Positions 8,824 to 23,645 are shown, counted from the first letter of the stretch. The stretch: 64,000 nucleotides of DNA from an uncultured Clostridium sp. (GCA_964426905.1 CAYRSG010000001.1:4786-68785), one strand, 5' to 3'. Notes: generated by a model from the letters alone, not told the origin. Numbers and translations are program-made.

Positions 8824-8857
8824 AAAAGGGACTGTAAAGCTTTACAGTCCCTTTTTT
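8824..8857 (+). terminator. Perfect 32-bp palindrome, intrinsic terminator
   Basis: AAAAGGGACTGTAAAG|CTTTACAGTCCCTTTT followed by further T residues. Confidence 0.85.
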
Positions 8858-9060: not shown

Positions 9061-9093
9061 TTTAACTTTATTTTAACCTACGGCGTTTACAAT
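9061..9093 (+). promoter_or_regulatory. OmpR/PhoB-type tandem direct repeat plus -10 box (VTC operon promoter)
   Basis: TTTAAC-tttat-TTTAACCT-acggcgtt-TACAAT; 11-bp period; same architecture as 15747-15779. Confidence 0.65.
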
Positions 9094-9154: not shown

Positions 9155-9820
9155 ATGAAAATACTTATAATCGACGACGCGATTGAACTTAATAACACAA
9201 TATCCGAAATTCTTTCAAATCATAATTACGAGGTCGAAAGCGCTTACGACGGGAAAAGCGGTTTAAGAATGGCTCTTGAAAAAGAGTACGACATAATCCT
9301 TCTCGATATTATGCTGCCTCAATTGAACGGATACGACGTATTGAAAAAGCTGAGAAACGCGGGTAGAGACGTCCCTGTTATTCTAATAACCGCGAGAGAC
9401 GATATAGACGATAAAATAGACGGATTAGAGCTTGGCGCGGACGATTATCTTTCAAAGCCGTTTAATATAAACGAATTGATTGTGAGAATTAAAGCTGTCG
9501 CGAGGAGAAGCAAAAAGTCAACCGCGGACGACAGTCTTATATATTATGCCGACGTCGCGTTAAATACGGACGCCGGAGAAATTATAAAAGAACAATCGGC
9601 GATTTCTATAAATGAAACCGAATGTGAAATAATAAAATATCTTATAAATCACAGCGAGGTTATTGTTCCGGAAAAAAATCTTATAAAGAAAACGGGCTTG
9701 CGGCCCGAAGAAAAAGAAAAACTGAATTTGTATATAAATCATCTGCGGGATTTGCTCAATATACTTAAATCTAAAATAAAAATTATTTATATCAGAGACT
9801 GCGGATACAAATTGTGCTGA
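9155..9820 (+). CDS. OmpR-family response regulator with degenerate winged helix
   Basis: Receiver motifs IIDD, LLDIMLP, ITAR and DDYLSKPF intact; C-terminal LYINHLRDLL / YIRDCGY departs from VYIxxLRKK / TVRGVGY. Confidence 0.9.
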   Translation: MKILIIDDAIELNNTISEILSNHNYEVESAYDGKSGLRMALEKEYDIILLDIMLPQLNGYDVLKKLRNAGRDVPVILITARDDIDDKIDGLELGADDYLSKPFNINELIVRIKAVARRSKKSTADDSLIYYADVALNTDAGEIIKEQSAISINETECEIIKYLINHSEVIVPEKNLIKKTGLRPEEKEKLNLYINHLRDLLNILKSKIKIIYIRDCGYKLC

Positions 9821-9841
9821 TAGAGGAAAGGCGGTGATAAC

Positions 9842-10507
9842 ATGAAATTCAGGCACGAATACAAGCATCAAATCAATCTCGCGGACATTTTTGTTCTCAA
9901 AGCAAGGCTGTTGGCAGTAGCGAAACATGATTCAAACGCCGGCGAAGACGGCGCGTATTATATCAAAAGCCTATATTTTGATAATTACGCCGACAAAGCT
10001 CTTCGCGAAAAAATAGACGGCGTAAACAAAAGGGAAAAATTTCGTATCAGGTATTACGGGACGGACGTCTCTTTCATACGCCTTGAAAAGAAAAGTAAAA
10101 TAAACGGTCTATGCAGTAAAGAAAGCGCCGAGATTACGGCGGAGGAGTGCGAAAAAATCATCGACGGAGATATAAATTTTCTTGCGGAAAGAGACAGCGG
10201 ACTTTTAAACGAGCTGTACGCCAAAATGAAATATCAAATTCTTCGTCCCAAATGTATTGTGGCGTACAGGCGGGAATGCTTTGTATATCCTCCCGGGAAC
10301 GTACGCGTTACAATCGATACGGATATTTGCGGAAGCAATAATGTAAAGGAATTTTTAAATCCCGATTTGGAGTTCGTACAGACTTATCGCAATTCCGTAT
10401 TGGAGGTAAAATGGGACGAGTATCTGCCGCAAATAATACGGGACTGCGTGCAGGTAAAATCGAGAAGGTCGGCCGCTTTTTCAAAATACGCGGCGGTAAG
10501 GTTTTAA
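9842..10507 (+). CDS. VTC / polyphosphate polymerase domain protein (CYTH tunnel fold)
   Basis: RHEYKH, SLYFD, KFRIRYY, LEKKSK, YRRECF, RVTID, LEVKW and FSKY motifs of the bacterial VTC domain. Confidence 0.9.
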   Translation: MKFRHEYKHQINLADIFVLKARLLAVAKHDSNAGEDGAYYIKSLYFDNYADKALREKIDGVNKREKFRIRYYGTDVSFIRLEKKSKINGLCSKESAEITAEECEKIIDGDINFLAERDSGLLNELYAKMKYQILRPKCIVAYRRECFVYPPGNVRVTIDTDICGSNNVKEFLNPDLEFVQTYRNSVLEVKWDEYLPQIIRDCVQVKSRRSAAFSKYAAVRF

Positions 10508-10536
10508 TATTTTAATAATGAAAGGAAGTAAAAATT

Positions 10537-11208
10537 ATGAGTTTTAGCGATGTTTTTAAATCAAGCTTTTTGGCGAATGTTAATTCATTCTCTACGGCGG
10601 ATGTGCTTTTGGCGCTTGGATTGTCCTTTGTGTTGGGGTTGTTTATATTTATTATTTACAAAAAAACCTATCAGGGCGTTATGTATTCCGACTCGTTCGG
10701 CGTCTCGCTTATCGCGATGTCTATGATAACAAGTCTTGTAATTATCGCGGTTACATCTAACGTAGTATTATCGCTCGGTATGGTCGGCGCGCTTTCCATT
10801 GTCCGTTTCAGAACAGCGATTAAGGAGCCTATGGATATTGCGTTTTTATTCTGGGCGATAGCGGTCGGCATTGTGCTCGGAGCGGGGCTTTTATCTTTGG
10901 CAGTAATCGGTTCCGTTATAATCGGTATTATTATCGTTGTTTTCTCCACGCGAAAAATCGGAGATACTCCGTATATTCTTGTGGTAAACTGCAAAAACGG
11001 CGAAGCGGAAAAAGCGGCGGACGCGCTTATTAAAGAAGAAGCAAAGAAAAGCGTTTTAAAATCCAAATCCGTAAACAAGCTTGGCGTCGAGCTTACCTAT
11101 GAAATCCGTATCAAAAATGACGATACAAGCTTTATAAACAGCGTTTCCTCCGGCGAGGGCGTAACCAATGCCGTTCTCGTCACCTATAACGGCGAATATA
11201 TGTCGTAA
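10537..11208 (+). CDS. DUF4956 membrane protein (MgtC/SapB-like TM region plus C-terminal soluble domain)
   Basis: Hallmark SLGMVGALSIVRFRTAIKEPMDIAFLFWAIAVGIVLGAG; several hydrophobic helices; usual partner of the VTC gene. Confidence 0.9.
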   Translation: MSFSDVFKSSFLANVNSFSTADVLLALGLSFVLGLFIFIIYKKTYQGVMYSDSFGVSLIAMSMITSLVIIAVTSNVVLSLGMVGALSIVRFRTAIKEPMDIAFLFWAIAVGIVLGAGLLSLAVIGSVIIGIIIVVFSTRKIGDTPYILVVNCKNGEAEKAADALIKEEAKKSVLKSKSVNKLGVELTYEIRIKNDDTSFINSVSSGEGVTNAVLVTYNGEYMS

Positions 11209-11217
11209 GGAATACCG

Positions 11218-13038
11218 ATGATAAGTTCAAGAAGAATCAATCTCATTGCAATACTTTTGGTTGCATTGGTTTTAATCGGTACAGTATATGCAATGTTTTT
11301 GCCAAACGAAAGCCTTACCGGTAATATTACGGGCGTAGTCGCTTACAGTGATATTCATCGGATCGGCATAACCGACGACGATTATTATACAACTTACGCG
11401 GACGGCTCAATCGGCAAAATTTTGTTAAACGGCGAATCCGCCGAGACGAAAAGCAATAATATTGAAATTTCGGACGGCGATGTGAAAATCCTGGCGGGCG
11501 GCGTTTATATTCTGTCGGGCGAGCTGTCCGACGGAAGCGTTATTGTAGATTCCGGCGACGGAGCGGAGGTACGAATCATTTTAAACGGCGCGAATATAAC
11601 ATCCTCCGACTTTTCGGCGATTTATGTAAAGCAGGCGGAAAAAACCGTAATATCGCTCGCGCCAAACACGGAAAATATTTTAACGGACGGTTCTTCCTAC
11701 AACGAAGACAAATCAGAGGACGGGAAACCGTCGGCCTGTTTGTATTCCAAAGACGACCTTACGATAAACGGTACTGGAAAGCTTACGGTTAACGCAAACT
11801 TCAGCGACGGAATAAAAGCGAACGACGTTCTGAAAATAATCGAGGGAAACATCGAAGTAAACGCGGTCGACGAGGGAATTAACGCTAACGATTACATCGC
11901 CGCGATTGAAGCGAATGTCAATATCGCTTCAGGCGGAGACGCGGTAAGGTGCGAGCATGACGATAACGAAAAGGGATTTATCGTATGCGAAGCCGCGTCG
12001 TTTTCAATTACAAGCGAGGGCGACGGTATATACGCTTCATCTGCGTTGTATATGAACGACGTCTCCGCGCAGATAACATCGGGCGGCGGAAGTAAAAACG
12101 CTTCAAAAAGCAGAGGCGGTTTCGGCGGCGGTATGGGCGGCGGTCAGAACGAGGAAGCCGCCGATACATCGAGCGCAAAGGCGATAAAAGCCGGTACAAA
12201 TATTGTTATAAACGGCGGAGACTTCAATCTCGACAGCAGCGACGATTCCATTCATTCGGACGGCGATTTAACCGTTGAAGGCGGCGCGTTCGCAATTTCA
12301 GCCGGAGACGACGCCGTTCATGCCGAAACAAATCTTATTGTCAATCCAAAAAATATGAATATAACAAAATGCCGCGAGGGTTTAGAGGGCGCGTGTATTA
12401 CCATTAACGGCGGAGATATTGCTATTGTTTCCGATGACGACGGTATCAACGCCGTCGGCGACGGTTCAACCGGCGGTATGGGTATGATGAGAGGCGGTAC
12501 GGACGAAGAGGAAAGAACCTCCGAAGACGACTTTTGGCTAATCGTAAACGGAGGTCATATATACATTGAAACATCCGGAGACGGACTCGACTCCAACGGC
12601 TCCGCCGTTATAAACGGCGGCTATCTTGAGATATACGGTCCCGAAAATAGCGGAAACGGATCTATTGACGTCGGCGACGGCGGATACGTCCTCATTGCGA
12701 ACGGCGGCAGCCTTCTCGCCGCCGGAAGCTCCGGGATGGCGGAGTATCCCTCGGAAAATTCACCGCAGCAGTCGCTTGTATTCTCTCTAAGCGAGACATA
12801 TCAACAGGGAAGCGCGATACAGGTAACAGATTCAAACGGAAATGAAATCATATCGGGAACGTCCTCCAAGAGGTTTAATTGGGTATGCATAAATACCGAA
12901 ACGATTGCTGAAAATGAGACGTATACGCTTTTAATCGACGGTAATACCGTTTCGGAAGCGACCGCCGGCGAAAGTCTCGCCGCGGCGGGCGCCGCAGGCG
13001 GCATGGGAAATATGAACGGTATGGGAAGGAGAAAATGA
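11218..13038 (+). CDS. Membrane-anchored Cthe_2159-like (DUF4353) beta-helix carbohydrate-binding protein
   Basis: N-terminal hydrophobic anchor; GVYILSGELSDGSVIV, LYSKDDLTINGTGKL, repeated DDxIHx/DGIxA rungs, GDGLDSNG. Confidence 0.88.
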   Translation: MISSRRINLIAILLVALVLIGTVYAMFLPNESLTGNITGVVAYSDIHRIGITDDDYYTTYADGSIGKILLNGESAETKSNNIEISDGDVKILAGGVYILSGELSDGSVIVDSGDGAEVRIILNGANITSSDFSAIYVKQAEKTVISLAPNTENILTDGSSYNEDKSEDGKPSACLYSKDDLTINGTGKLTVNANFSDGIKANDVLKIIEGNIEVNAVDEGINANDYIAAIEANVNIASGGDAVRCEHDDNEKGFIVCEAASFSITSEGDGIYASSALYMNDVSAQITSGGGSKNASKSRGGFGGGMGGGQNEEAADTSSAKAIKAGTNIVINGGDFNLDSSDDSIHSDGDLTVEGGAFAISAGDDAVHAETNLIVNPKNMNITKCREGLEGACITINGGDIAIVSDDDGINAVGDGSTGGMGMMRGGTDEEERTSEDDFWLIVNGGHIYIETSGDGLDSNGSAVINGGYLEIYGPENSGNGSIDVGDGGYVLIANGGSLLAAGSSGMAEYPSENSPQQSLVFSLSETYQQGSAIQVTDSNGNEIISGTSSKRFNWVCINTETIAENETYTLLIDGNTVSEATAGESLAAAGAAGGMGNMNGMGRRK

Positions 13039-13553
13039 TAATGTTAAAAAGAATGACGGTAATATTGCTTTGTATTGTTCTCGCTTTTGGAATAAGCGCG
13101 TACGCCGCAAACACTGCCGATGAAAACGCCGCGGAACAATCGGCTGCGTCGGAAGAAGCGCCTATGCAAGGCGGCGGCAGACGAGGCGGCGGAGGCGGAG
13201 GCGACCGCGACGGCATGGAAATGCCGCCGGACGACGCAATGCGCGGCGAAACGCGCGATATGCCGGAAGGCGAAGGAGCTCCTCCCGAAAGCAATGAAAA
13301 TAACCAACACGATACGCCGGACGGCGCTCCGGAAATAGATGCAAATCATTCTCAAGGAGGCGGTATGAACGCCTCTACGGGCGATCAAGGCGGTATGAAT
13401 AACGGAGAAAGCCCTCAAAACACAGACGCCGCCGGTAAAGCCGCGGACGGTATAGTTACGTTCCTTAAAACATACTCTACTCCGATAACAGCCGTAATAC
13501 TTTTGGTATTTGCGTTTGCGTTTGTCATATTCTACAAGAGAAAGCAATATTAA
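13035..13553 (+). CDS. Secreted Gly/Met/acidic low-complexity protein with C-terminal TM anchor
   Basis: Signal peptide ending AYA; disordered body; TM segment PITAVILLVFAFAFVIFY followed by KRKQY; ATGA-coupled to the upstream gene. Confidence 0.75.
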   Translation: MIMLKRMTVILLCIVLAFGISAYAANTADENAAEQSAASEEAPMQGGGRRGGGGGGDRDGMEMPPDDAMRGETRDMPEGEGAPPESNENNQHDTPDGAPEIDANHSQGGGMNASTGDQGGMNNGESPQNTDAAGKAADGIVTFLKTYSTPITAVILLVFAFAFVIFYKRKQY

Positions 13554-13559
13554 TTTATG

Positions 13560-13585
13560 AAGAGCGGGCGCTTTGTCCGCTCTTT
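13560..13585 (+). terminator. Terminator closing the VTC operon
   Basis: AAGAGCGGGC-gcttt-GTCCGCTCTTT hairpin just after the stop codon. Confidence 0.65.
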
Positions 13586-13663
13586 AAATAAATATTTTAT
13601 TGATTTATACGAAATATATGATATAATTAACAATATAAACTTTTTGACAAACGGAGTGATACA

Positions 13664-14335
13664 ATGCGGCTGCTTATAGCGGAGGACGAAAAAAATCTCA
13701 ACAAAACAATATCGGAAAGGCTTACCCGCGGCGGCTATACCGTCGACAGCTGCTATGACGGCGAGGACGCCTTGTATTATATTGAAAACACGCAATACGA
13801 CGGAATAATTCTTGATGTAATGATGCCTAAAATTAACGGCTTCGAGGTGTTGAGAATTATCAGAGAGAAAAATGTTCTCACACCCGTTTTGATGCTTACG
13901 GCAAAGGATGCGGATGAAGATATAATAACGGGACTTGACGCCGGCGCCAACGATTATCTCACAAAACCGTTTTCCTTTGCGGTGCTGTGCGCAAGAATAA
14001 GAGCGATGCTGAGAGTGAAGGAAAACGTCGCAAGCGCGGTTTTAGAGCTTGCGGATTTAAGCGTTGACACCACAAAGAGAATTGTGAAGCGCGGAGATAC
14101 AAAAATCGAGCTGTCCTCAAAGGAATATTCTATTTTAGAATACATGATGAGAAATAAAGGTATTATCGTCTCAAAAGAAAAAATTGAGGAAAACATATGG
14201 AATTACGAATATGAAGGCACAAGCGACGTCGTTAAAGTATATATACATCATTTAAGGAAAAAGATTGACAACAACTTTGAAAAAAAATTGCTGCATACCA
14301 TTAAAAACGTCGGGTATGTAATAAAGGAAGATTGA
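13664..14335 (+). CDS. OmpR-family DNA-binding response regulator
   Basis: AEDE, ILDVMMP, LTAK and DYLTKPF receiver motifs; intact wHTH VVKVYIHHLRKK / HTIKNVGY. Upstream TTGATT-N16-TATAAT (13600-13627). Confidence 0.95.
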   Translation: MRLLIAEDEKNLNKTISERLTRGGYTVDSCYDGEDALYYIENTQYDGIILDVMMPKINGFEVLRIIREKNVLTPVLMLTAKDADEDIITGLDAGANDYLTKPFSFAVLCARIRAMLRVKENVASAVLELADLSVDTTKRIVKRGDTKIELSSKEYSILEYMMRNKGIIVSKEKIEENIWNYEYEGTSDVVKVYIHHLRKKIDNNFEKKLLHTIKNVGYVIKED

Positions 14336-14336
14336 T

Positions 14337-15695
14337 ATGAAAAAGCCAACCTCGATAAAAACGCGAATCACAATATGGTATACCGCCTTAATGTTCGTTT
14401 TAATTTTTGTCGTGCTTTGTCTTGTCGGCGCGTTATCCTACCAGCTATCTATGGATAACGTTAAAAATAATATAAAAATGCAGGTGATGCAAATTGCCGA
14501 TAAAGTCGGAGCAAGACAGTCGGAGGACATTTTTTACACCGTTGAAAGCAAAGAGGAATTTAAAAACGTTTCCGTCTATCTTGAAAACGGCGAACACGTT
14601 GTCGGTCAGTATATCTACGATTTATCAAACATAGACTTTAAGGACGGTCTTTTAAGAAAAGAAAGCGCGGACGGCGAAATATATATTGTGTATGATGTTT
14701 TTAAGCCGTCAAGACCCGGAGATATGAGAGGGTATTGGATAAGAGGCGCCGAATCGATCAGCTACACAAATATACTCAGCCGATCTGTTTTTAAGATATT
14801 ACTGTTTGTAATTCCGCTTATTATTTTATTAACCTCGCTCGGCGGATATTATATTGCCAAAAAGGCGTTTATGCCCATAAATAATATTACAAATACGGCA
14901 AACGATATATATATGTTAAACGATCTCAGCAAGAGAATTGAAATTGCCGACGGCGCGCGCGAGGACGAGCTTTACAGCCTTTCGGTCACGCTTAACAGAA
15001 TGCTTGATAAAATCGACAGCCTGATAAAGCAAGAGAAGCAGTTTACCTCCGACGCGTCGCACGAGCTCAGAACTCCCGTAAGCGTGATACTCGCGCAGGG
15101 CGAATATCTGTTGGAAATAGCGGATACCGATAAGGAAAGAGCCCTTGCGCGGACAATTGTTGATAAATCAAATCAGATATCCAAGCTTGTTTCGGAGCTT
15201 TTACTGTTGGCGAGAATTGATTCGAGCAGACAAAAAATCAAGAAAGAAAAGCTTGACCTGAGCGCGCTGATTGATATAGCGGCGGAAGAAATGAAACCTC
15301 TCGCGGACAAAAAGAACGTTTCTATTATTACAAACGCAAATGAAAATGTAATCGTAAATACTGATGAAACACTGCTTTTGAGCGTTTTTTCCAATCTTAT
15401 AAGCAACGCGGTAAAATACGGCAAAGAATCAGGGTACGTTATTGTCGAGGCGAAGAAGACCCCGGATTACACGGAAATTACCGTTAAAGACAACGGTATA
15501 GGAATCGCTGATGAAAATATAGAAAAAATTTGGGATAGATTTTATCGCGTCGACGACGTGAGAAACGACGACTACGGTTCAAGCGGACTCGGTCTTTCTA
15601 TGGTTAAAAGCATCGTAAAGCTTCTCGGAGGGGAAATATTTGTAAAAAGCAGACTTGGAGAAGGGACGGAATTCAGAATTATTTTTAAAGATTAA
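14337..15695 (+). CDS. HAMP-domain sensor histidine kinase
   Basis: Two TM helices, HAMP, H-box FTSDASHELRTP, N-box NLISNAVKY, G-boxes DNGIGI and GSSGLGLS. Confidence 0.95.
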   Translation: MKKPTSIKTRITIWYTALMFVLIFVVLCLVGALSYQLSMDNVKNNIKMQVMQIADKVGARQSEDIFYTVESKEEFKNVSVYLENGEHVVGQYIYDLSNIDFKDGLLRKESADGEIYIVYDVFKPSRPGDMRGYWIRGAESISYTNILSRSVFKILLFVIPLIILLTSLGGYYIAKKAFMPINNITNTANDIYMLNDLSKRIEIADGAREDELYSLSVTLNRMLDKIDSLIKQEKQFTSDASHELRTPVSVILAQGEYLLEIADTDKERALARTIVDKSNQISKLVSELLLLARIDSSRQKIKKEKLDLSALIDIAAEEMKPLADKKNVSIITNANENVIVNTDETLLLSVFSNLISNAVKYGKESGYVIVEAKKTPDYTEITVKDNGIGIADENIEKIWDRFYRVDDVRNDDYGSSGLGLSMVKSIVKLLGGEIFVKSRLGEGTEFRIIFKD

Positions 15696-15746: not shown

Positions 15747-15779
15747 TTTAACGTTTGTTTAACCTTTCTCGATTATTAT
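15747..15779 (+). promoter_or_regulatory. OmpR/PhoB-type tandem direct repeat plus -10 box (SLH gene promoter)
   Basis: TTTAAC-gtttg-TTTAACCT-ttctcgat-TATTAT; spacing identical to 9061-9093. Confidence 0.65.
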
Positions 15780-15840
15780 ATAAACAGAACCGATGAATAA
15801 GGGTTTTACAATCACATATTATTTTACAAGGAGGAAAAAA

Positions 15841-17928
15841 ATGAAACGTTTAACAAAAGTAATAGCGATAACCGCCGCCGCGGCAATGATAGCGTCGTCT
15901 GCGCCGTTTGCGTTTGCCGCGGACGAGGAACCGCCTGCAATACCCGAAGGCGGTATGAACGCCATGACAAACGGAGAAGAGCCGCCCGAAAAGCCAGAAG
16001 GCGGTATGGGCGCCATGACAAACGGTGAAGAGGCGCCCGAAAAGCCCGAAGGCGGAATGGGCGCGATGATGAACGGAGAAGAACCGCCCGAAAAGCCTGA
16101 CGAGGAAACGGGCGGAAGAAATACGCTTCCGTTTACCGACGTCGGCTCGGACGACTGGTTTTATGAGTCTGTCGCTCAGTCATATATGAGAGGCTTGGTA
16201 TACGGCGTAAGCGATACGGAATTCGCGCCTCAGTCGGAACTTACCGGCGGCGCCGTGCTTACAATGCTTTACCGCGCCGACGGTAACAAGGCGTCGGAAA
16301 ATCAGACGGGCGCTTGGTATGACGAGGGCGTCGAATGGGCGAAAAACAATTCTATTATAACCGGAGAATGGAGCTTCGATCCCGAAGCGGCTGTTACGAG
16401 AGAACAGATGATGGATATTGTTTATAAATATCTTACATACAAGGGAATAGATCAATCGGAAACCGGTGATATATCCGCGTATGCCGACGCCGTTAACGTT
16501 TCCGATTACGCGATCGACGCGGTTAAATGGCTTGTCGGACAAGGCATAATCGCGGGCGACGAAACCGGTCTGCGCCCCGCGGATTCGCTTACGAGAGCGG
16601 AAATGTCCGCTATTCTTATAAGAACGCTTGATAAATACGGAGCGGGAGCCCGGGCGGGCGGTATGGATAAACCTTCCGATACGCCTAACGCAAACGGCGC
16701 GCCGGGCGGCTTCGGAGGCGGTTCGCAGACTGTGGAGCAGGGCGCGTCGGCAAATACGATTGCAGAGGACGGCGACTACAGCGGCGGAAACTATGCTTCG
16801 ACCGGAGATAACGAAAACGCTTTAAGAATTGAAGGCGCGTCGGTAACTCTCGACGGCATAACAGTCAACAAAAGCGCGGGAGCTTCTTCAAACGCCGAAA
16901 CCGGTGATTTCTACGGAATGAACGCCGCGCTTTTGGCAACAGACGGCGCAAACGTGACGATTACCAACGCAACCGTCACTTCCTCCGCGCAAAACGGAAA
17001 CGGTATCTTCAGCTACGGCAGCGGAACGGTTGTTAACGTGTCGGACTCGGTTATCACAACGACAGCCGATAATTCGGGCGGTATTCAGACGACCGGCGGC
17101 GGCACGACAAACGCGAGCAATCTGACAGTCAATACAAGCGGCAGCTCGGCGGCGGCAATTCGTTCGGACCGCGGCGGCGGCACGGTAATTGTTAACGGCG
17201 GCGAATATACCTCAAACGGTTACAATTCGCCCGCTGTATATTCAACCGCCGATATAACCGTTTCAAACGCGTCGCTTACGGCGAATAATTCCGAGGCTCT
17301 CGTTATCGAGGGTAAAAATTCAATAACGCTCAAGGACTGCGATGTTTACGGAAATATGAGCGACACAAAGGGTACAAGCTCGGACGAAAATGTGCATAAC
17401 GTAATGATTTATCAGTCGATGTCGGGCGACGCCGAGGTCGGAACGTCCTCCTTCGCGATGAGCGGCGGAACGCTTACAAGCAATAACGGCGACGTATTCT
17501 ATATAACCAATACTCACTCGTTAATCAGTCTTTCGGACGTCGCGATAGAGAATAAAGACAGCGACGGTCTTCTGATGCGTATAAGCGGCAACAGCGCGTC
17601 GCGCGGATGGGGCGGCGCAGGCAAAAACGGCGCGCAAGCGGAGGTAACGGCTGATAATCAGGAGCTTAACGGCGATATAGAGGTCGACTCTATTTCAACA
17701 CTTACGATGAGCCTCCAAAACGGTTCGGTTCTTACCGGCAAAATAAACATTGTCGAAAACGCGCAGGGCGGTACGGCGGTCGAAAATAACGCCGATATCA
17801 CGATTGACGCGGACAGCGCATGGAATTTGACCGGCGATTGCGTAATAACAAGCCTTACGAATAACGGCGCGATTAATTATAACGGCTATACAATAACTCT
17901 TGCGGACGGAACCGTGTTAAGCGAATAA
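15841..17928 (+). CDS. S-layer homology (SLH) surface protein with C-terminal right-handed beta-helix
   Basis: Start moved from 15793 to the ATG at 15841 after AAGGAGG. Signal peptide ending AFA; three SLH repeats (PFTDVGSDDWF, VTREQM, LTRAEMSAIL); G/S/T/N-rich beta-helix rungs (FYGMNAALLA, AAIRSDRGGG). Confidence 0.85.
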   Translation: MKRLTKVIAITAAAAMIASSAPFAFAADEEPPAIPEGGMNAMTNGEEPPEKPEGGMGAMTNGEEAPEKPEGGMGAMMNGEEPPEKPDEETGGRNTLPFTDVGSDDWFYESVAQSYMRGLVYGVSDTEFAPQSELTGGAVLTMLYRADGNKASENQTGAWYDEGVEWAKNNSIITGEWSFDPEAAVTREQMMDIVYKYLTYKGIDQSETGDISAYADAVNVSDYAIDAVKWLVGQGIIAGDETGLRPADSLTRAEMSAILIRTLDKYGAGARAGGMDKPSDTPNANGAPGGFGGGSQTVEQGASANTIAEDGDYSGGNYASTGDNENALRIEGASVTLDGITVNKSAGASSNAETGDFYGMNAALLATDGANVTITNATVTSSAQNGNGIFSYGSGTVVNVSDSVITTTADNSGGIQTTGGGTTNASNLTVNTSGSSAAAIRSDRGGGTVIVNGGEYTSNGYNSPAVYSTADITVSNASLTANNSEALVIEGKNSITLKDCDVYGNMSDTKGTSSDENVHNVMIYQSMSGDAEVGTSSFAMSGGTLTSNNGDVFYITNTHSLISLSDVAIENKDSDGLLMRISGNSASRGWGGAGKNGAQAEVTADNQELNGDIEVDSISTLTMSLQNGSVLTGKINIVENAQGGTAVENNADITIDADSAWNLTGDCVITSLTNNGAINYNGYTITLADGTVLSE
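15925..16100 (+). repeat. 51-bp coding tandem repeat, about 3.4 copies
   Basis: Encodes EEPPAIPEGGMNAMTNG / EEPPEKPEGGMGAMTNG / EEAPEKPEGGMGAMMNG / EEPPEKP. Confidence 0.88.
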
Positions 17929-17939
17929 CAGAAATAAGT

Positions 17940-17985
17940 AATAATTAAGGGACTGTATCAAAAATGATACAGTCCCTTAATTATT
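17940..17985. terminator. Bidirectional terminator between convergent genes
   Basis: Perfect 21-bp inverted repeat AATAATTAAGGGACTGTATCA-aaaa-TGATACAGTCCCTTAATTATT. Confidence 0.8.
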
Positions 17986-18145: not shown

Positions 18146-21100
18146 TTACATGACGCTTGCCGTCAATTTACACGAGGACGAGCCTGAGTATGAACCGCCT
18201 GTTACTATACCGTAGGAGCCTTTTCCCGTGAATGTGCCGCCCGTTACGCTTCCGCCGTAATTTAAGGTATAGGAGCCGCTTGTCATTTCAGGCGTCGATA
18301 TAAATACCCACGAGTATGATTTTGAAGGAACATAGGTTACAATTTCATTCCCGCTCGAATTTGTAAGCTTAAACGCTTTACCGGCTGACTGTGAAGATAG
18401 TCCGGAAAAACCGGACGACGTTACAACATGGTACTGCGTCGAGCTGCTCGGAGTTACAGCCATATCTGACGAACCCGCGCCGATTACCGTACCGCCTGTA
18501 ATCGTAAGCGTGTCGCCGCTGTTATCTCCGATATCAAATACGCCGTTTCCTCCGCTTGTCGGACCGTTTACAAGTACAGCGCCGCCTGAAATAAGACCGC
18601 TCCCGTTACTGTCAAAGCCGTCGCCCTCCGCCTCAATGTAGAGAAGTCCGCCCGAAACCTCGATATAGCCGTAGCTTGACGTATCCTCGCCACCCCAGTT
18701 GGGACCGGTATTTCCGCCTTGATTGCCGCCGGGAACTCCTTGATTACCGCCCGGTCCGGCAAACAATTCAACAGACATGGCGGAAACGTTATCAAGGTCA
18801 TACGCGCTGCCCGACGGCTTATCGCCCGCGGCGTTCGCGCCGTCGTCAGAAGCAACGACTCTTGTTTCGCCGCCGGATATATAAATTTCCGCGGCTTCTA
18901 TGCCTTCATAGCTCTTTGTAATGTTGATATCCGCGTTATCGCTTATATATAAATAACTGTCGGCGTGGACGCCGTCGTCGCCCGTAGCCGCCGTAATACT
19001 GCCGCCCGTCACACGTACGGTGTGGTTTGAATGAACAGCGTCGTCATATGTGTTGATATCAAATGTACCTCCGCTTATATAAACGAGATTTCCCGCCTTT
19101 ACGCCTTTACAGCTTTCAGCCGCTTCGGGATTATTTTCCGATACTGTTTGCGGCGCGCCGCCGTACGCGGTTAAATCAAAAGCGCCGCCCGAAATATTTG
19201 TTATATATTCGCCCTGTATGCAGTCCTGCTGCGAATTTACCGTTATATCGCCGCCTGTGATAACAACGTTGCCCGTTCCGCACTGTATTCCGTCCTCGGA
19301 GCAGGTTATATTAAGCGTTCCGCCTTTAATATCAATTTCGCCGTCTACCCAGTAAGCGGCGGTTGTGCCGTCGGTATCGTATATGACCTCGTTTACTTGC
19401 ATTCCTTCCAACGCCTTGGTTATTGTTATATTCGCGCTGTCGCTTATTGTAATGTTTTTTACCGCCTTTATTCCGTCCTCGCCGGCAGACGCGTTGATTG
19501 CGCCGCCGCTGATTACTATACAGCCGTCGCCTTCCGCCGGCGTTTGAGCGGCTGTTTCATCTTCCAGATATTCAACGCTTGACGCGTTAGCCTTTAACGC
19601 TTCGCCCTGCGCGTCAACGGTAATCGATCCGCCTGTAATTGTCAGAAGCGTGTCCGCCTGTATACCGTCGCCGTTTGTTACCTCGCCTGTTGTCGCGTCT
19701 GCGGTTGAGCCTGTCGTAATGTTTATCATGCCGCCGTTTATCTCGACTGTGCCGCCCGTTACATATTCGCCTGATGTTTCATCAAGGGAGGGAGCGGCGT
19801 CGGACTTAATACCGTCGCCGCCCGAAACAACCGTTACGGAGTTGTTCTTCTTTGTAATCTTGACCGACTCATCGCCCTTTATTCCGTTATTTGCGGCGTT
19901 TACGTTTAAATCGCACACGCCTATTTCAAGGTCGTTTTTACAGCGTACGCCGTTTCCGTATTCGGATACGGCATTGAGCGTTCCGTCGCCCTTTATCGTA
20001 AGGTCGTTTTTGCTGTAAATCGCCGTTGTATCCGCGCCCGACGAGGTTGATGTAAACGTGCTTCCGTTTGACGTCGGAACAAGGAAAACCTTGCCTTTTA
20101 ATCCGTCGAACGCGTTTCCTGTTGAACTCGTTACATTTACGCCGTCAAGATTAATTATGATTTCATCTGTCTTCACGGCGGAATTAACTATAATTTGTCC
20201 GTCCGCGAGCGTACCCTCGACGGTATATTCGCCCGCCGCTGTTATTGTCGCCGTCGTTCCGTCTACCGTCACATTTTCAACGCCATCGGCGTTTATGCTG
20301 TCGCCGTTAAGATGAATTATTCCGTCGCCGGGCGTCGGTGTGGCGTTCGGGTCGGTTGTAGGCGTCGGAGTCGGCTCCGCCGCTTCCTTTGTCGTAACCG
20401 TAACGGTAACGTCGCCGGTCATCTTTGTTATTCTGTAGCCGTTTTCTATTTCCGTATCGTCAGGTCCTTTTAAATTTTTATAGTTACTCGAGGGGCTTAC
20501 CTCAACAGCGTCAACCTCATATCCGTCCTCTAATATGATTTTAAAATTAACCTGTCCGTTTCCCGCGGTATCAATCGCTCCCGTAGAACTGTCTCTGGCG
20601 TACGCTTCCGTGACATTCTCGTACGCGTCAGTGAAATCCTGTGTGTCCGACGCCGTAATTGACGCGTGAGAGTCGGTTACAAAGGTTGCTTTGAAGCCGT
20701 CCGTTTCCGACGGCTGCTCCGTTGTATCCGGCTGCCGCGTCGCTTCCGGAGTGTTTTCCGGCGCAGGTTCAAAGGTCGGCTGATTTTCAGGCGTATACGC
20801 GGCGCTGAGCGGTTCAAGAGTCATTACGCCGTTCTCCGTTTTCCAGAAAAACGCCTTTAAAACATCGCCGTCTGTTTTTAATATATCGTTAAAAACAAGA
20901 GTTTTATCTCCCGTTCCGTCTGTTTCCTCCGACATTACAAGACTTTTAAGACGTCCCGAGACGTCATAGACCGCGACAATTCCTTTTCCGCTTTCGCTTG
21001 CGGATTTGTTTACAATCATCGTTACGCTTCCGTCGTTCGCAATATCCAATGAGCTTATCGCGGAAGTAAACTCTGCCGCCTGAGCGGCGGCGGAAAACAT

Positions 21101-21151
21101 CATTGATAAAACAATGATAATGCTTAGTACTTTTGCGGGAATAAATTTCAT
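18146..21151 (-). CDS. Large secreted Cthe_2159-like (DUF4353) beta-helix carbohydrate-binding protein
   Basis: Signal peptide ending AQA, N-terminal modules, PT linker, then ITAAGEYTVEGTLADGQIIV, AIYSKNDLTIKGDGTL, repeated DGIxA/DDxVH rungs and GDGFDSNG; RBS AAGGAGG. Confidence 0.88.
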   Translation of the reverse strand: MKFIPAKVLSIIIVLSMMFSAAAQAAEFTSAISSLDIANDGSVTMIVNKSASESGKGIVAVYDVSGRLKSLVMSEETDGTGDKTLVFNDILKTDGDVLKAFFWKTENGVMTLEPLSAAYTPENQPTFEPAPENTPEATRQPDTTEQPSETDGFKATFVTDSHASITASDTQDFTDAYENVTEAYARDSSTGAIDTAGNGQVNFKIILEDGYEVDAVEVSPSSNYKNLKGPDDTEIENGYRITKMTGDVTVTVTTKEAAEPTPTPTTDPNATPTPGDGIIHLNGDSINADGVENVTVDGTTATITAAGEYTVEGTLADGQIIVNSAVKTDEIIINLDGVNVTSSTGNAFDGLKGKVFLVPTSNGSTFTSTSSGADTTAIYSKNDLTIKGDGTLNAVSEYGNGVRCKNDLEIGVCDLNVNAANNGIKGDESVKITKKNNSVTVVSGGDGIKSDAAPSLDETSGEYVTGGTVEINGGMINITTGSTADATTGEVTNGDGIQADTLLTITGGSITVDAQGEALKANASSVEYLEDETAAQTPAEGDGCIVISGGAINASAGEDGIKAVKNITISDSANITITKALEGMQVNEVIYDTDGTTAAYWVDGEIDIKGGTLNITCSEDGIQCGTGNVVITGGDITVNSQQDCIQGEYITNISGGAFDLTAYGGAPQTVSENNPEAAESCKGVKAGNLVYISGGTFDINTYDDAVHSNHTVRVTGGSITAATGDDGVHADSYLYISDNADINITKSYEGIEAAEIYISGGETRVVASDDGANAAGDKPSGSAYDLDNVSAMSVELFAGPGGNQGVPGGNQGGNTGPNWGGEDTSSYGYIEVSGGLLYIEAEGDGFDSNGSGLISGGAVLVNGPTSGGNGVFDIGDNSGDTLTITGGTVIGAGSSDMAVTPSSSTQYHVVTSSGFSGLSSQSAGKAFKLTNSSGNEIVTYVPSKSYSWVFISTPEMTSGSYTLNYGGSVTGGTFTGKGSYGIVTGGSYSGSSSCKLTASVM

Positions 21152-21187
21152 TATCCTTCCTCCTTGTTTTTTTCAAATATATATATT

Positions 21188-21218
21188 ATTCGTACCGTTA
21201 AATATTTTTTTCGGGGTA
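21188..21218 (-). promoter_or_regulatory. Sigma-I-type promoter of the large Cthe_2159-like gene
   Basis: Minus strand TACCCCGA-N16-TACGAAT; fits the sigma-I pattern of a C-tract -35 and CGAA -10. Confidence 0.8.
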
Positions 21219-21254
21219 GCTGCAAAAATCTCCGAAATTTCGGAGATTTTTAAA

Positions 21255-22979
21255 TTACGGCAATTCCGTGTTTTCACTATGTCCGCTAAATCCCTCGTTT
21301 GAGATGTGATTGCCGCCGTCGTTTTGCGGTTTCGGTTCAGATTGCCGCGGCTGTTCGCTTTGTGGGAAAGCGTCTCCGTTGTCTGCTTCACCCGAATGCC
21401 GCGCGTTGTTTTGCTGATTATCGCTATTTTGTATCGGCGCATCCGCCCATGGTTCCGGTTCGGCTTGCGGCGGCATATTGTTTTCCCGCTTCGGCTCACC
21501 CGACTGTGATTTATATGTATCATTATCTGATTGCGGAGGCTGACCGCTCTGCTCTACGACGGGTTCGAGTTTTGTTTCGGCGGGCGCCGCCGGATTATCC
21601 TGCGGTTTATCACTATCAGGCTCCGCGCCACTCGGTTCCTGTTCTTCCGGCGGCTGCTTCTCGGACGGCGCGGTCGCTTCAGGATTTTGATTGCCGGTTT
21701 GCGGCGGAATATCGTGAGTATCTTCACCGTCTTGATTTGGTATGCTGTCTTGCGGCTTTTGTTCGGTTGTCTGCCCGCCGTCTGTTGATGGTTTGTCATC
21801 TCCGCGCACAGGCTCGCTTAGCTCCGAAATTCCGTCCGGCAGGTTTCTGTCGCTTTGATACGGCGCGCTTTCCCGCGGCTTTTGCTCCGTTTGTATGGGT
21901 TCGGCGTCAACAGGCGGATTTTGTTGCGCGGGTTCGGATGTTTGCTGAGGTTTCCTTTGCAAAATGTTATCGTCCTGTGTTTTTTGTTCTTGCCTCATAG
22001 ACTGACTATTTACGGCGGCAATATTCCAAGACGGCTGTTCGCCAAGTTCAAACGGAATTTCCTGCGGACTGCCATCGCCTTGAACCGATATATTTTCAGG
22101 CGGTTCGTACTTATTCCGGGTACTCTGATTAACGGAAGATATATCATTCCCGCGTTTGATTTCACCGGCTGTAAATGTATTTTTGTTTATGATGTACGGC
22201 TGTTCATAATTTACGCTTTTATTTTCCCGATACGCGGGAGGTTCCGAAATGTTTTCGATTTTTCTCCCCTGCGGCTTCGGAGTTTGCGTAAGTATATCAT
22301 CCGCTTTTTTGTCGGATAAGTTACCGGTATCAAGCATAATATTCAGTATTTCTTTTACGGATTTATCGCTAAGCTTGACCGCGTTTGAGCGCATATCTCC
22401 GCCGTTTTTATCGGTGTATTCCTCAAGCGCCTTTGCCTTCGCTATTGACACTCCGATATTCTGAGCGGTCCGGAGCGCCTCCATATCCGCAGTCTCTTTT
22501 ATAATATTGATATTACTGTAATTTACGTTTTCAATACGCGGTTTTACTATTCCCGAAACCGCGGCTAAAATAACGCTGCGGTTATTGTCGTTTATATATC
22601 CGATTTCCTCCGAGATTTTAATAAGCGTTTCAACAGAGTCCTCCGCGCTTTTCCCTTTTATATTTGTTTTATTCAAAAGAACCCGGGCGTCGTCGTTTAA
22701 TGATTTAACGTCGATAACCCTGTTATAAATATTAACCGTCATCATAAGGCTTGGATTTATATCAACGCTGACGTATCCCGCCGGCATAAAGTATGAGCCT
22801 ATGCAGCCGGCGCATATAATAACAAGGCTTGCCGCCATAGCGCGCAAACGCCCTTTGTTTAAAGCAATATTTACTTTATCGCCGACAGAATAGTTTTTAT
22901 CTTTAATATTTACAAACCCGCCGCCCTTTGTTAAAAGCACGGCTCTTCCGTTTTGGATTTCCATTATAACGCCTCGCAC
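21255..22979 (-). CDS. rsgI: Anti-sigma-I factor RsgI with long disordered C-terminus
   Basis: RsgI_N (GVIMEI...AVLLTKGGGF...YSVGDKV), one TM helix, YVSVDINPS motif, then a Q/P/E/S-rich tail; GTG start 3 nt after the sigI stop. Confidence 0.88.
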   Translation of the reverse strand: MRGVIMEIQNGRAVLLTKGGGFVNIKDKNYSVGDKVNIALNKGRLRAMAASLVIICAGCIGSYFMPAGYVSVDINPSLMMTVNIYNRVIDVKSLNDDARVLLNKTNIKGKSAEDSVETLIKISEEIGYINDNNRSVILAAVSGIVKPRIENVNYSNINIIKETADMEALRTAQNIGVSIAKAKALEEYTDKNGGDMRSNAVKLSDKSVKEILNIMLDTGNLSDKKADDILTQTPKPQGRKIENISEPPAYRENKSVNYEQPYIINKNTFTAGEIKRGNDISSVNQSTRNKYEPPENISVQGDGSPQEIPFELGEQPSWNIAAVNSQSMRQEQKTQDDNILQRKPQQTSEPAQQNPPVDAEPIQTEQKPRESAPYQSDRNLPDGISELSEPVRGDDKPSTDGGQTTEQKPQDSIPNQDGEDTHDIPPQTGNQNPEATAPSEKQPPEEQEPSGAEPDSDKPQDNPAAPAETKLEPVVEQSGQPPQSDNDTYKSQSGEPKRENNMPPQAEPEPWADAPIQNSDNQQNNARHSGEADNGDAFPQSEQPRQSEPKPQNDGGNHISNEGFSGHSENTELP

Positions 22980-22982
22980 AGC

Positions 22983-23645
22983 TCACACCTCCCTTATGTC
23001 GAAATATGCGGATATTTCAGGATAATCACGCGTTAAGATAATCACCGCCGCTATTATGTATTTCCTATGCCTTTCAAGCGTCTTTCTGTTTAGAGGAACT
23101 CCTTCGGATACTTCTTTTAAAGGCAAAATATGTTTGCTGATTACTGTTTTAAAAAGTTTTTCGTCATTTATAATATAACGCAGCGCGTCAAAACACAGCC
23201 TTTTTGTTTTACGGCTTTTGGGCGAAACGTTTGCAAGCTCGAAAAAAGATATTCCAAATTCCGCGAGTTCGGCTGTAAGCGCCTCTATTTCCCACTTAAT
23301 ATCATGGTTATCGTTCGAGGGAATATCAAACGGCGCTCCGTTCTCGTTTTCAAGCTCGGAAAATGTCGCCGCCGTATTTCGGGAATTACGGCGAAGCTCA
23401 TCTACGAGACGATTGTGTATAACCATAGAGGCAAAGGATAGAAATTTACCCTTGCTTTGTTCATAGCTGTCAATCGCTTCGTTAAACGCTATCATCGCGG
23501 TCATAAATTCGTCGTCGCTGTCCGTAATAACGCGATTAAGCGTTTTACTCGCGGACGATAAGATGAAATTGCGGTATTCTCCGATAAGCTCATTTTTCAC
23601 TTTTTTGTCTTTTGCAGCGGCGGCCGCTCGTTTTTCTAAGTTCAT
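22983..23645 (-). CDS. sigI: RNA polymerase sigma-I factor
   Basis: DDEFMTAMIAFNEAIDSY, GKFLSFA, FGISFFELANVSPKSRKT and RKTLERHRKYIIA sigma-I motifs; adjacent to rsgI. Confidence 0.93.
   Translation of the reverse strand: MNLEKRAAAAAKDKKVKNELIGEYRNFILSSASKTLNRVITDSDDEFMTAMIAFNEAIDSYEQSKGKFLSFASMVIHNRLVDELRRNSRNTAATFSELENENGAPFDIPSNDNHDIKWEIEALTAELAEFGISFFELANVSPKSRKTKRLCFDALRYIINDEKLFKTVISKHILPLKEVSEGVPLNRKTLERHRKYIIAAVIILTRDYPEISAYFDIREV

Follow-up and report, generated by a model that had tools for sequence, protein, structure and literature searches.

A two-component-linked VTC–DUF4956 cassette with a Cthe_2159-type beta-helix protein in the CotH slot in an uncultured Clostridium

A gene cassette that pairs a VTC-domain protein, closest to the yeast polyphosphate polymerase Vtc4, with a DUF4956 membrane protein, and that carries a Cthe_2159-family beta-helix protein where related cassettes mostly carry CotH, has been identified in 64,000 nucleotides (nt) of DNA from an uncultured Clostridium sp. 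(GCA_964426905.1, CAYRSG010000001.1:4786-68785; this whole stretch is termed the window, and positions are counted from its first letter). The cassette is best read as one copy of a conserved Bacillota envelope module under two-component control, in which the VTC protein would polymerise phosphate at the membrane and the product would be delivered outward, to be used or held by the exported protein encoded in the third slot, a reading given a probability of roughly 0.35. Synthesis at the membrane with outward delivery is thus put at about one in three, with capture of the product by the beta-helix protein less probable.

The core of the cassette is a five-gene run on the plus strand (9155-13553), encoding an orphan OmpR-family response regulator, RR1 (9155..9820); the VTC-domain protein of 221 amino acids (aa; 9842..10507); the DUF4956 membrane protein of 223 aa (10537..11208; PF16316, E 6.9e-13); the Cthe_2159-family protein of 606 aa (11218..13038; PF14262, E 6.7e-84, 281.7 bits against a cut-off of 25.8); and p172, a protein of 172 aa without a Pfam or NCBIfam match (13035..13553). 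Gaps of 21 nt (RR1 to VTC), 29 nt (VTC to DUF4956) and 9 nt (DUF4956 to the 606-aa gene) are followed by a 4-nt overlap (ATGA) of the p172 start with the end of the 606-aa gene, and a purine-rich ribosome-binding site stands before each of the DUF4956, 606-aa and p172 genes; the run is a single tightly coupled operon. A first-pass annotation of the window had described a tightly spaced operon of four genes at 9842-13553; all four were recovered on the plus strand at those coordinates, three by Pfam and p172 as a confirmed open reading frame, with the tight spacing as described. The proposed extent did not stand, since RR1, a promoter repeat at 9061 and a downstream two-component system (13664-15695) had been left out and belong to the unit.

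The VTC protein scores 142.7 bits against PF09359 (cut-off 23; E 1.8e-41) and is closest, in sequence and in predicted fold, to yeast Vtc4. A search of the PDB with the single sequence was almost empty (E 0.13), and a profile built from 12 homologues was required; this profile hit Vtc4 (E 2.6e-15), with no match to any other tunnel enzyme even at E 1. Thirteen tunnel residues align between the window protein and Vtc4 (R4/R196, K8/K200, R68/R264, R70/R266, K84/K281, K93/K294, Y142/Y359, R144/R361, R155/R373, E188/E426, K190/K428, S214/S457 and K215/K458), including counterparts of both Vtc4 catalytic lysines, K200 and K458, and all thirteen are invariant among 61 homologues from two subfamilies only ~23% identical. 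The AlphaFold2 model (predicted local distance difference test score, pLDDT, 93.9) finds Vtc4, Vtc2 and Vtc3 as its best Foldseek matches (E 1.6e-15 to 5.5e-13; template modelling score against Vtc4 0.74-0.76), with ygiF, AtTTM3 and the CYTH cyclases listed only from E 5e-8 onward, a margin of seven orders of magnitude for Vtc4 over other tunnel enzymes. The earlier claims of a VTC-type protein with intact basic tunnel motifs are thereby borne out, the protein being Vtc4-like rather than a generic CYTH protein, as is that of solubility: no hydrophobic segment is predicted in its 221 aa. By Pfam and hydrophobicity, it consists of the VTC domain only, with no SPX domain and no Vtc1-type three-helix membrane domain.

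Likeness of fold leaves room for a different activity, and the protein could instead be a hydrolase or transferase with the tunnel fold (for instance one acting on tri- or polyphosphate, or one that uses nucleotides) in a cassette that handles some other phosphorylated envelope molecule. Tunnel centres that are nearly identical can differ in activity, as for AtTTM3, whose centre is very similar to that of Vtc4, although it makes no polymer and hydrolyses tripolyphosphate only (PMC4641920), and the invariant glutamate E6 of the bacterial protein supplies half of the hydrolase ExExK metal-binding motif. Hydrolase-type tunnel enzymes, however, carry an acidic patch where Vtc4 has basic residues (Martinez et al., PMC4641920), and at three of the four patch positions the window protein is basic as in Vtc4 (R4, K93 and K190). 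The invariant lysine equivalent to K458, catalytic in Vtc4 and dispensable in AtTTM3 (PMC4641920), also speaks against a hydrolase, as do the profile and the predicted fold, which group the protein with Vtc4, Vtc2 and Vtc3 and set it well apart from ygiF, AtTTM3 and the CYTH cyclases. A hydrolase or transferase is accordingly considered unlikely.

The third slot is filled in the window by a recognisable beta-helix protein, residues 67-292 of which match the Cthe_2159 crystal structure (4peu/4phb; E 1.4e-40). An N-terminal hydrophobic segment (residues 9-27) marks the 606-aa product as a membrane-anchored, extracytoplasmic protein by sequence, and its composition is acidic (isoelectric point, pI, 4.09; 88 Asp and Glu residues against 32 Lys and Arg). 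CotH (PF08757) is absent from the window by Pfam, as first noted, and was not found in the 86.6%-complete host genome. That VTC–DUF4956 pairs often lie beside CotH genes, and that the beta-helix protein may take the CotH position here, had been put forward with a suggested comparison of the two neighbourhoods; both proposals were upheld when this was carried out. A scan of 185,579 species genomes gave 80 loci with a VTC gene of the window's subfamily; almost all carry the label Bacillota, and one record is labelled E. coli. In 60 of the 80, DUF4956 is followed by a gene long enough (at least 300 aa, mostly 450-800) for the third slot to be scored by Pfam assignment, with CotH in 52, Cthe_2159 in seven and, in a single locus, a choice-of-anchor-I domain protein (L091:7064-8776; PF22494, E 3.3e-64). 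An N-terminal membrane or signal segment is present in 52/52 CotH partners and, with that of the window included, 8/8 Cthe_2159 partners, five of which also possess a C-terminal helix and basic tail of their own.

Exchange between the two partner types appears to have occurred repeatedly. On a tree of 85 VTC proteins from a quick maximum-likelihood run (IQ-TREE), the Cthe_2159 label changes eight times, with at least five changes forced by well-supported branches, and the 13-member clade of the window's VTC protein (99% support) holds six Cthe_2159 and five CotH cassettes. Repeated exchange at one position supports, from sequence, occupation of the CotH slot by the beta-helix protein. Among 61 related genomes, VTC matches were found at 45 places in 34, and cross-referencing of coordinates placed a Cthe_2159-like gene beside 13 VTC loci (in 11 genomes) and CotH beside 12. 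Cthe_2159 orthologues follow VTC–DUF4956 in loci L014-L017, L025 and L031, and the linkage recurs in two VTC subfamilies only ~23% identical and in two gene orders, VTC, DUF4956, Cthe_2159, response regulator, histidine kinase (L018, L019) and Cthe_2159, VTC, DUF4956, response regulator, histidine kinase (L021, L022).

These recurrences bear on the simplest alternative, that the beta-helix protein is an unrelated plant-fibre-binding surface protein standing beside VTC–DUF4956 by chance. The family has been described as binding cellulose and pectin (10.1101/401869), the second VTC–DUF4956 pair of the host genome lacks a Cthe_2159 neighbour, and two further Cthe_2159 genes of that genome are unlinked to VTC, which also weighs against any strict dependence of the family on the pair. 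Against chance, however, stand the linkage at 13 loci of 11 related genomes and at a further 7/60 more distant loci, its recurrence in two subfamilies and two gene orders, and the gap of only 9 nt to DUF4956 in the window; the explanation, already disfavoured, is regarded as very improbable.

The pairing of VTC with DUF4956 is near-obligate in related loci, and the membrane partner belongs to a large family (5922 representatives at E up to 1e-3). An AlphaFold2 model of the window protein (pLDDT 90.1) predicts five helices (20-44, 52-72, 76-88, 98-115 and 119-138) followed by a C-terminal domain of order beta-alpha-beta-beta-alpha-beta, which is ACT-like and has the C-terminal domain of MgtC as its best match (2lqj; Foldseek E 8.9e-4, VIA Z 10.0). 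Residues 69-194 match the MgtC/SapB model NF007431 at E 2.9e-7, with 30.3 bits under a cut-off of 214, so that DUF4956 is at most a distant relative of MgtC/SapB. As modelled, the protein has an MgtC-like architecture of five helices and an ACT-like domain and is not a Vtc1-type subunit; no link to a Vtc1-type channel was seen. The description of the Streptococcus intermedius homologue SIR_1592 agrees with this architecture (PMC12345266). By the positive-inside rule, the N-terminus of the model would lie outside and the ACT domain inside. Conservation peaks in the segment from transmembrane helix (TM) 3 through the following loop to TM4, including small-residue motifs typical of helix packing; among 79 homologues, G84 and R90 never vary, R92 and K96 are kept in at least 90%, and the R90/R92/K96 loop is probably on the cytoplasmic face, given the modelled topology.

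An MgtC-like partner also lends itself to a cytoplasmic explanation, in which VTC and DUF4956 act on the inner side only, DUF4956 being an MgtC-like regulator whose ACT domain senses a ligand, for example in phosphate or energy homeostasis, and the VTC protein making or consuming a local phosphate signal, with nothing exported. The architecture and the weak MgtC/SapB sequence match are consistent with such a role, MgtC being described, in the summary given in PMC12345266, as acting on ATP synthase and PhoR; in S. intermedius, moreover, a DUF4956 mutant altered Pel and aggregation without a VTC phenotype (PMC12345266). The full Vtc4 polymerase residue set has nonetheless been kept, the third slot is translationally coupled to DUF4956, and that slot is filled each time by a membrane-anchored exported protein, swapped in place repeatedly, none of which is accounted for by mere co-regulation. 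The same explanation would have CotH, Cthe_2159 and SLH proteins merely co-regulated within an envelope-stress or surface-remodelling regulon, and the promoter repeat common to the operon and an SLH gene does point to plain co-regulation with another surface protein. Confinement to the cytoplasm is, on these grounds, held to be doubtful.

This repeat, TTTAAC-N5-TTTAAC, has four matches in the 1.77-Mb host genome, two of which flank the cassette on the plus strand, each followed by CCT: one in the promoter region of the operon (9061..9077) and one (15747..15763) 30 nt 5' of a gene for a 711-aa SLH/beta-helix-like protein (15793..17928, plus strand; SLH E 3.1e-23, with a weak Beta_helix match at E 0.0035). 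A one-mismatch version followed by TATAAT stands just 5' of the VTC operon in loci L016, L017 and L026-L030, which include CotH-type cassettes without RR1. From its sequence and placement, the repeat is likely an OmpR-family binding site standing in for a -35 element, and the SLH protein is probably a co-regulated surface protein through this common promoter repeat. The likely binder is RR2, an OmpR-type response regulator encoded downstream of the operon (13664..14335, plus strand; Response_reg E 1.7e-29, Trans_reg_C E 7e-24) and followed by a sensor histidine kinase (14337..15695, plus strand) with two TM helices (7-25, 151-169) around an extracytoplasmic domain of ~125 aa, then HAMP, HisKA and HATPase domains by Pfam. 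Orthologues of RR2 and of the kinase lie beside VTC–DUF4956 in both subfamilies (response regulator 54-56%, kinase 36-40% identity), those of the other subfamily being at L018, L019, L021 and L022, and a response regulator–histidine kinase pair lies within 6 kb of 31 of 78 related loci, whether upstream, divergent or downstream.

RR1, the first gene of the operon, retains an intact receiver by its translation (D51, T79, K101; Response_reg E 1.1e-30) and a marginal DNA-binding domain (Trans_reg_C 26.5 bits against a cut-off of 26.2). It is also found upstream of VTC in both copies in one related genome (G016; L016, L017) at 85-90% identity, and its first position in the operon only here and in G016 makes it look like a recent addition to the cassette. 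Copper or silver sensing by the RR2–kinase pair was considered, prompted by heavy-metal (CusRS/CopRS/SilRS-type) NCBIfam models as the best matches and by Met-rich stretches in the surface proteins; it was dropped, since both scores lie below cut-off (RR2 224.5 against 279.2; kinase 219.2 against 292.55), PhoR-type and PnpS-type models score almost equally, and the Met content is modest.

The last gene of the operon had been described at first pass as encoding a coupled, TM-anchored disordered protein, an assessment with which the 4-nt overlap, C-terminal hydrophobic segment and disordered middle of p172 agree. The protein begins with a signal-peptide-like hydrophobic N-terminus, continues through a disordered acidic middle rich in Gly, Met, Pro and Gln, and ends in the hydrophobic segment and a basic tail. 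Homologues occur in nine loci, all inside the window's VTC clade and in both cassette types: after the beta-helix gene in Cthe_2159 cassettes (the window, L015, L025, L031), and between DUF4956 and CotH (L027, L028, L030, L033) or after CotH (L029) in CotH cassettes. Conservation is limited to the signal peptide and the last ~30 residues, where a TPI-T/I-S/A motif precedes the hydrophobic helix and a KRK-N/Q-Y end, and in L032 a p172-related tail is fused to the C-terminus of CotH. An ESM Atlas search with p172 returned unnamed clusters only. From these alignments, p172 is read as a detachable module that serves the surface component as linker and anchor. Every extracytoplasmic part of these cassettes has low-complexity stretches rich in Gly, Met, Pro and Gln: p172, the 606-aa protein (in its loops and its tail) and the CotH partners (in inserts), 22 of the 52 CotH partners having some 30-aa segment in which G, M, P, Q or N make up at least 70%.

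In the membrane-synthesis and outward-delivery reading preferred here, sensing of an envelope signal by the kinase would lead RR2 to bind the TTTAAC repeats and turn on the operon together with the SLH gene. The VTC protein would then dock on a DUF4956 oligomer and polymerise phosphate from ATP in the manner of Vtc4, with the chain, or its phosphoryl groups, handed across to the exterior surface of the membrane. The product would be used or held there by the third-slot protein, which its own anchor, and possibly p172 as well, would keep beside the machine; an acidic beta-helix would do so through divalent cations. A PPK1 gene is present elsewhere in the host genome, so that the cassette is not needed for bulk polyphosphate; PPK2 was not found in this 86.6%-complete assembly. 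A more specific version, quite unlikely as it stands, casts the cassette as a split, signal-induced VTC machine that threads polyphosphate out as a phosphoryl donor or polyanion scaffold for interchangeable effectors, mostly CotH and here a Ca2+-loaded Cthe_2159 protein.

The closest precedent is the yeast VTC complex (Vtc4, Vtc3 or Vtc2, and Vtc1; PDB 3g3q, 3g3r, 7ytj, 8i6v), a polyphosphate polymerase joined to a membrane channel. Yeast couples synthesis to translocation, for which five Vtc1-type helices provide a positively charged path (PMC9911596); in topology, the vacuole lumen corresponds to the far side of the membrane here. The bacterial protein shares the Pfam family, the conserved tunnel residues, a fold nearest Vtc4 and a tie to a multi-pass membrane protein. 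In contrast to yeast, the enzyme is separate and soluble, has no SPX domain and carries E6 for Thr198, with its activity here predicted only; its partner is the five-helix and ACT-domain DUF4956 protein instead of a three-helix Vtc1-type domain; and control would fall to a two-component system instead of inositol pyrophosphates. By analogy, the bacterial pair could couple synthesis and translocation as yeast does, with an unrelated membrane protein; the invariant R90 and highly conserved R92 and K96 of DUF4956, in a loop placed on the cytoplasmic face, speak in favour.

Bacterial counterparts have been recorded as gene triads. VTC, DUF4956 and CotH genes have been noted beside Gram-positive pel loci (10.1101/768473; S. 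intermedius SIR_1592-1594, PMC12345266), and Clostridium perfringens NELoc-2 holds the same three, with DUF4956 annotated as tubulin-like (PMC2879425). The window's cassette resembles these pel-accessory and NELoc-2 triads in having a VTC–DUF4956 pair followed by an exported protein, and differs from them in having Cthe_2159 for CotH and an added two-component system, orphan regulator and p172; contiguity with pelDEADAFG was not seen at the cassette, and the 86.6%-complete genome yielded no PelG gene (PF16933). S. intermedius mutants deleted for the DUF4956 or CotH gene showed an altered Pel level, and their aggregation in sputum medium fell by more than half (PMC12345266). With MgtC/SapB (C-terminal structures 2lqj, 7qa5), DUF4956 shares the predicted layout of five helices and a cytoplasmic ACT-like domain, but it has its own TM3-loop-TM4 signature with R90, R92 and K96. 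Clostridium thermocellum Cthe_2159 (4peu/4phb) is a PL9-like beta-helix protein that binds cellulose and polygalacturonate, the family being described as binding cellulose and polygalacturonate or pectin (10.1101/401869); the 606-aa protein differs from it in being membrane-anchored, in having a second beta-helix stretch, Gly/Met-rich loops and a C-terminal domain, and in its VTC–DUF4956 operon. No mention of Cthe_2159 together with VTC was met in the literature searched.

Several observations weigh against synthesis at the membrane with outward delivery. Among the 61 homologues, the invariant E6, left from the ancestral ExExK motif, stands where Vtc4 has T198, so that the active site is Vtc4-like and not identical to that of the polymerase. 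Third-slot partners are acidic (median pI 4.4 for CotH and 4.1 for Cthe_2159), and any binding of polyphosphate by such strongly acidic surface proteins would need bridging cations; we know of no Cthe_2159 protein that binds a phosphate polymer. The membrane part of DUF4956 matched no solved structure by Foldseek or VIA, a result that does not imply a novel fold, and, to our knowledge, MgtC, which DUF4956 resembles, has no known transport role. The literature searched yielded no biochemically tested bacterial VTC-domain protein. For the S. intermedius VTC deletion, no change in aggregation or Pel is reported (PMC12345266), which tells against a simple model that makes its neighbours depend on the enzyme. 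Gene fusions add nothing in favour, as VTC–DUF4956 and VTC–CotH fusions look, from their sequences, like deletion or frameshift chimeras lacking the SKY motif: as Rosetta-stone evidence, the VTC–DUF4956 fusions P0271 and P0284 were set aside as singletons without the C-terminal SKY motif, the VTC–CotH fusions P0276 and P0277 as joined mid-domain with DUF4956 skipped, and the DUF4956–CotH chimeras P0137 and P0229 as likewise truncated.

The operon and its surroundings contain further elements. A terminator of the preceding gene lies upstream (8824-8855), and a terminator-like hairpin, read from the sequence, may close the operon at about 13560..13590 on the plus strand; its T-run is weak and it is absent from the listing of a consensus terminator scan. 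The two-component genes are preceded by a sigma-70-like promoter with an extended -10 (13600..13627, plus strand; TTGATT-16-TATAAT), in which 10 of 12 hexamer positions match and TG precedes the -10, and a bidirectional terminator (17940-17985) follows the SLH gene. The cassette's neighbours include SbcCD, an SCP2-like gene, the two-component system, the SLH gene and SigI/RsgI. A second Cthe_2159 protein of the window (1001 aa, within 18146-23645, minus strand) is encoded directly downstream of RsgI-like anti-sigma (21255-22979) and SigI-like (22983-23645) genes, which makes it a separately regulated beta-helix surface protein beside the cassette. A third, of 625 aa with a copper-amine-oxidase N-terminal-like domain, lies on contig C6 (L013:6863-9510, minus strand) without linkage to VTC; after it comes a gene whose 301-aa product matches Cthe_2159 weakly, and genes for ferrous-iron transport and regulators adjoin. 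The second VTC–DUF4956 pair, of the other, ~23% identical subfamily, lies on contig C2 (L003:4299-8874, minus strand); the genes after it encode a YdcZ-type membrane protein and a BspA-type leucine-rich-repeat protein of 694 aa, and neither CotH nor Cthe_2159. In relatives, Cthe_2159 and a sensor pair come after the genes of this subfamily. The host genome (1.77 Mb, 86.6% complete, 98 contigs) has uncultured gut and rumen Clostridia as its closest public relatives.

Bacterial polyphosphate synthesis is attributed to PPK1 and PPK2, and VTC is treated as a eukaryotic enzyme in the reviews consulted (PMC10657179). VTC-domain proteins with the full Vtc4 residue set are, however, abundant in gut and rumen Clostridia, where they are paired with a membrane partner. 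The VTC–DUF4956–CotH grouping is itself already known; the two-component-linked Cthe_2159 variant described here adds experimental handles in the form of a non-kinase third component, a sensor pair with a promoter element and the small anchor protein p172. Since the sensor pair is dedicated to the cassette and its promoter element can be recognised, the cassette can be switched on, and a third component that is not a kinase speaks for the pair supplying something broader than a substrate for a kinase. If the pair does make and move polyphosphate, it would give bacteria a second, PPK-independent way of making the polymer, provide polyphosphate outside the cell, and offer exported CotH kinases a plausible supply line of phosphoryl groups where ATP is absent.

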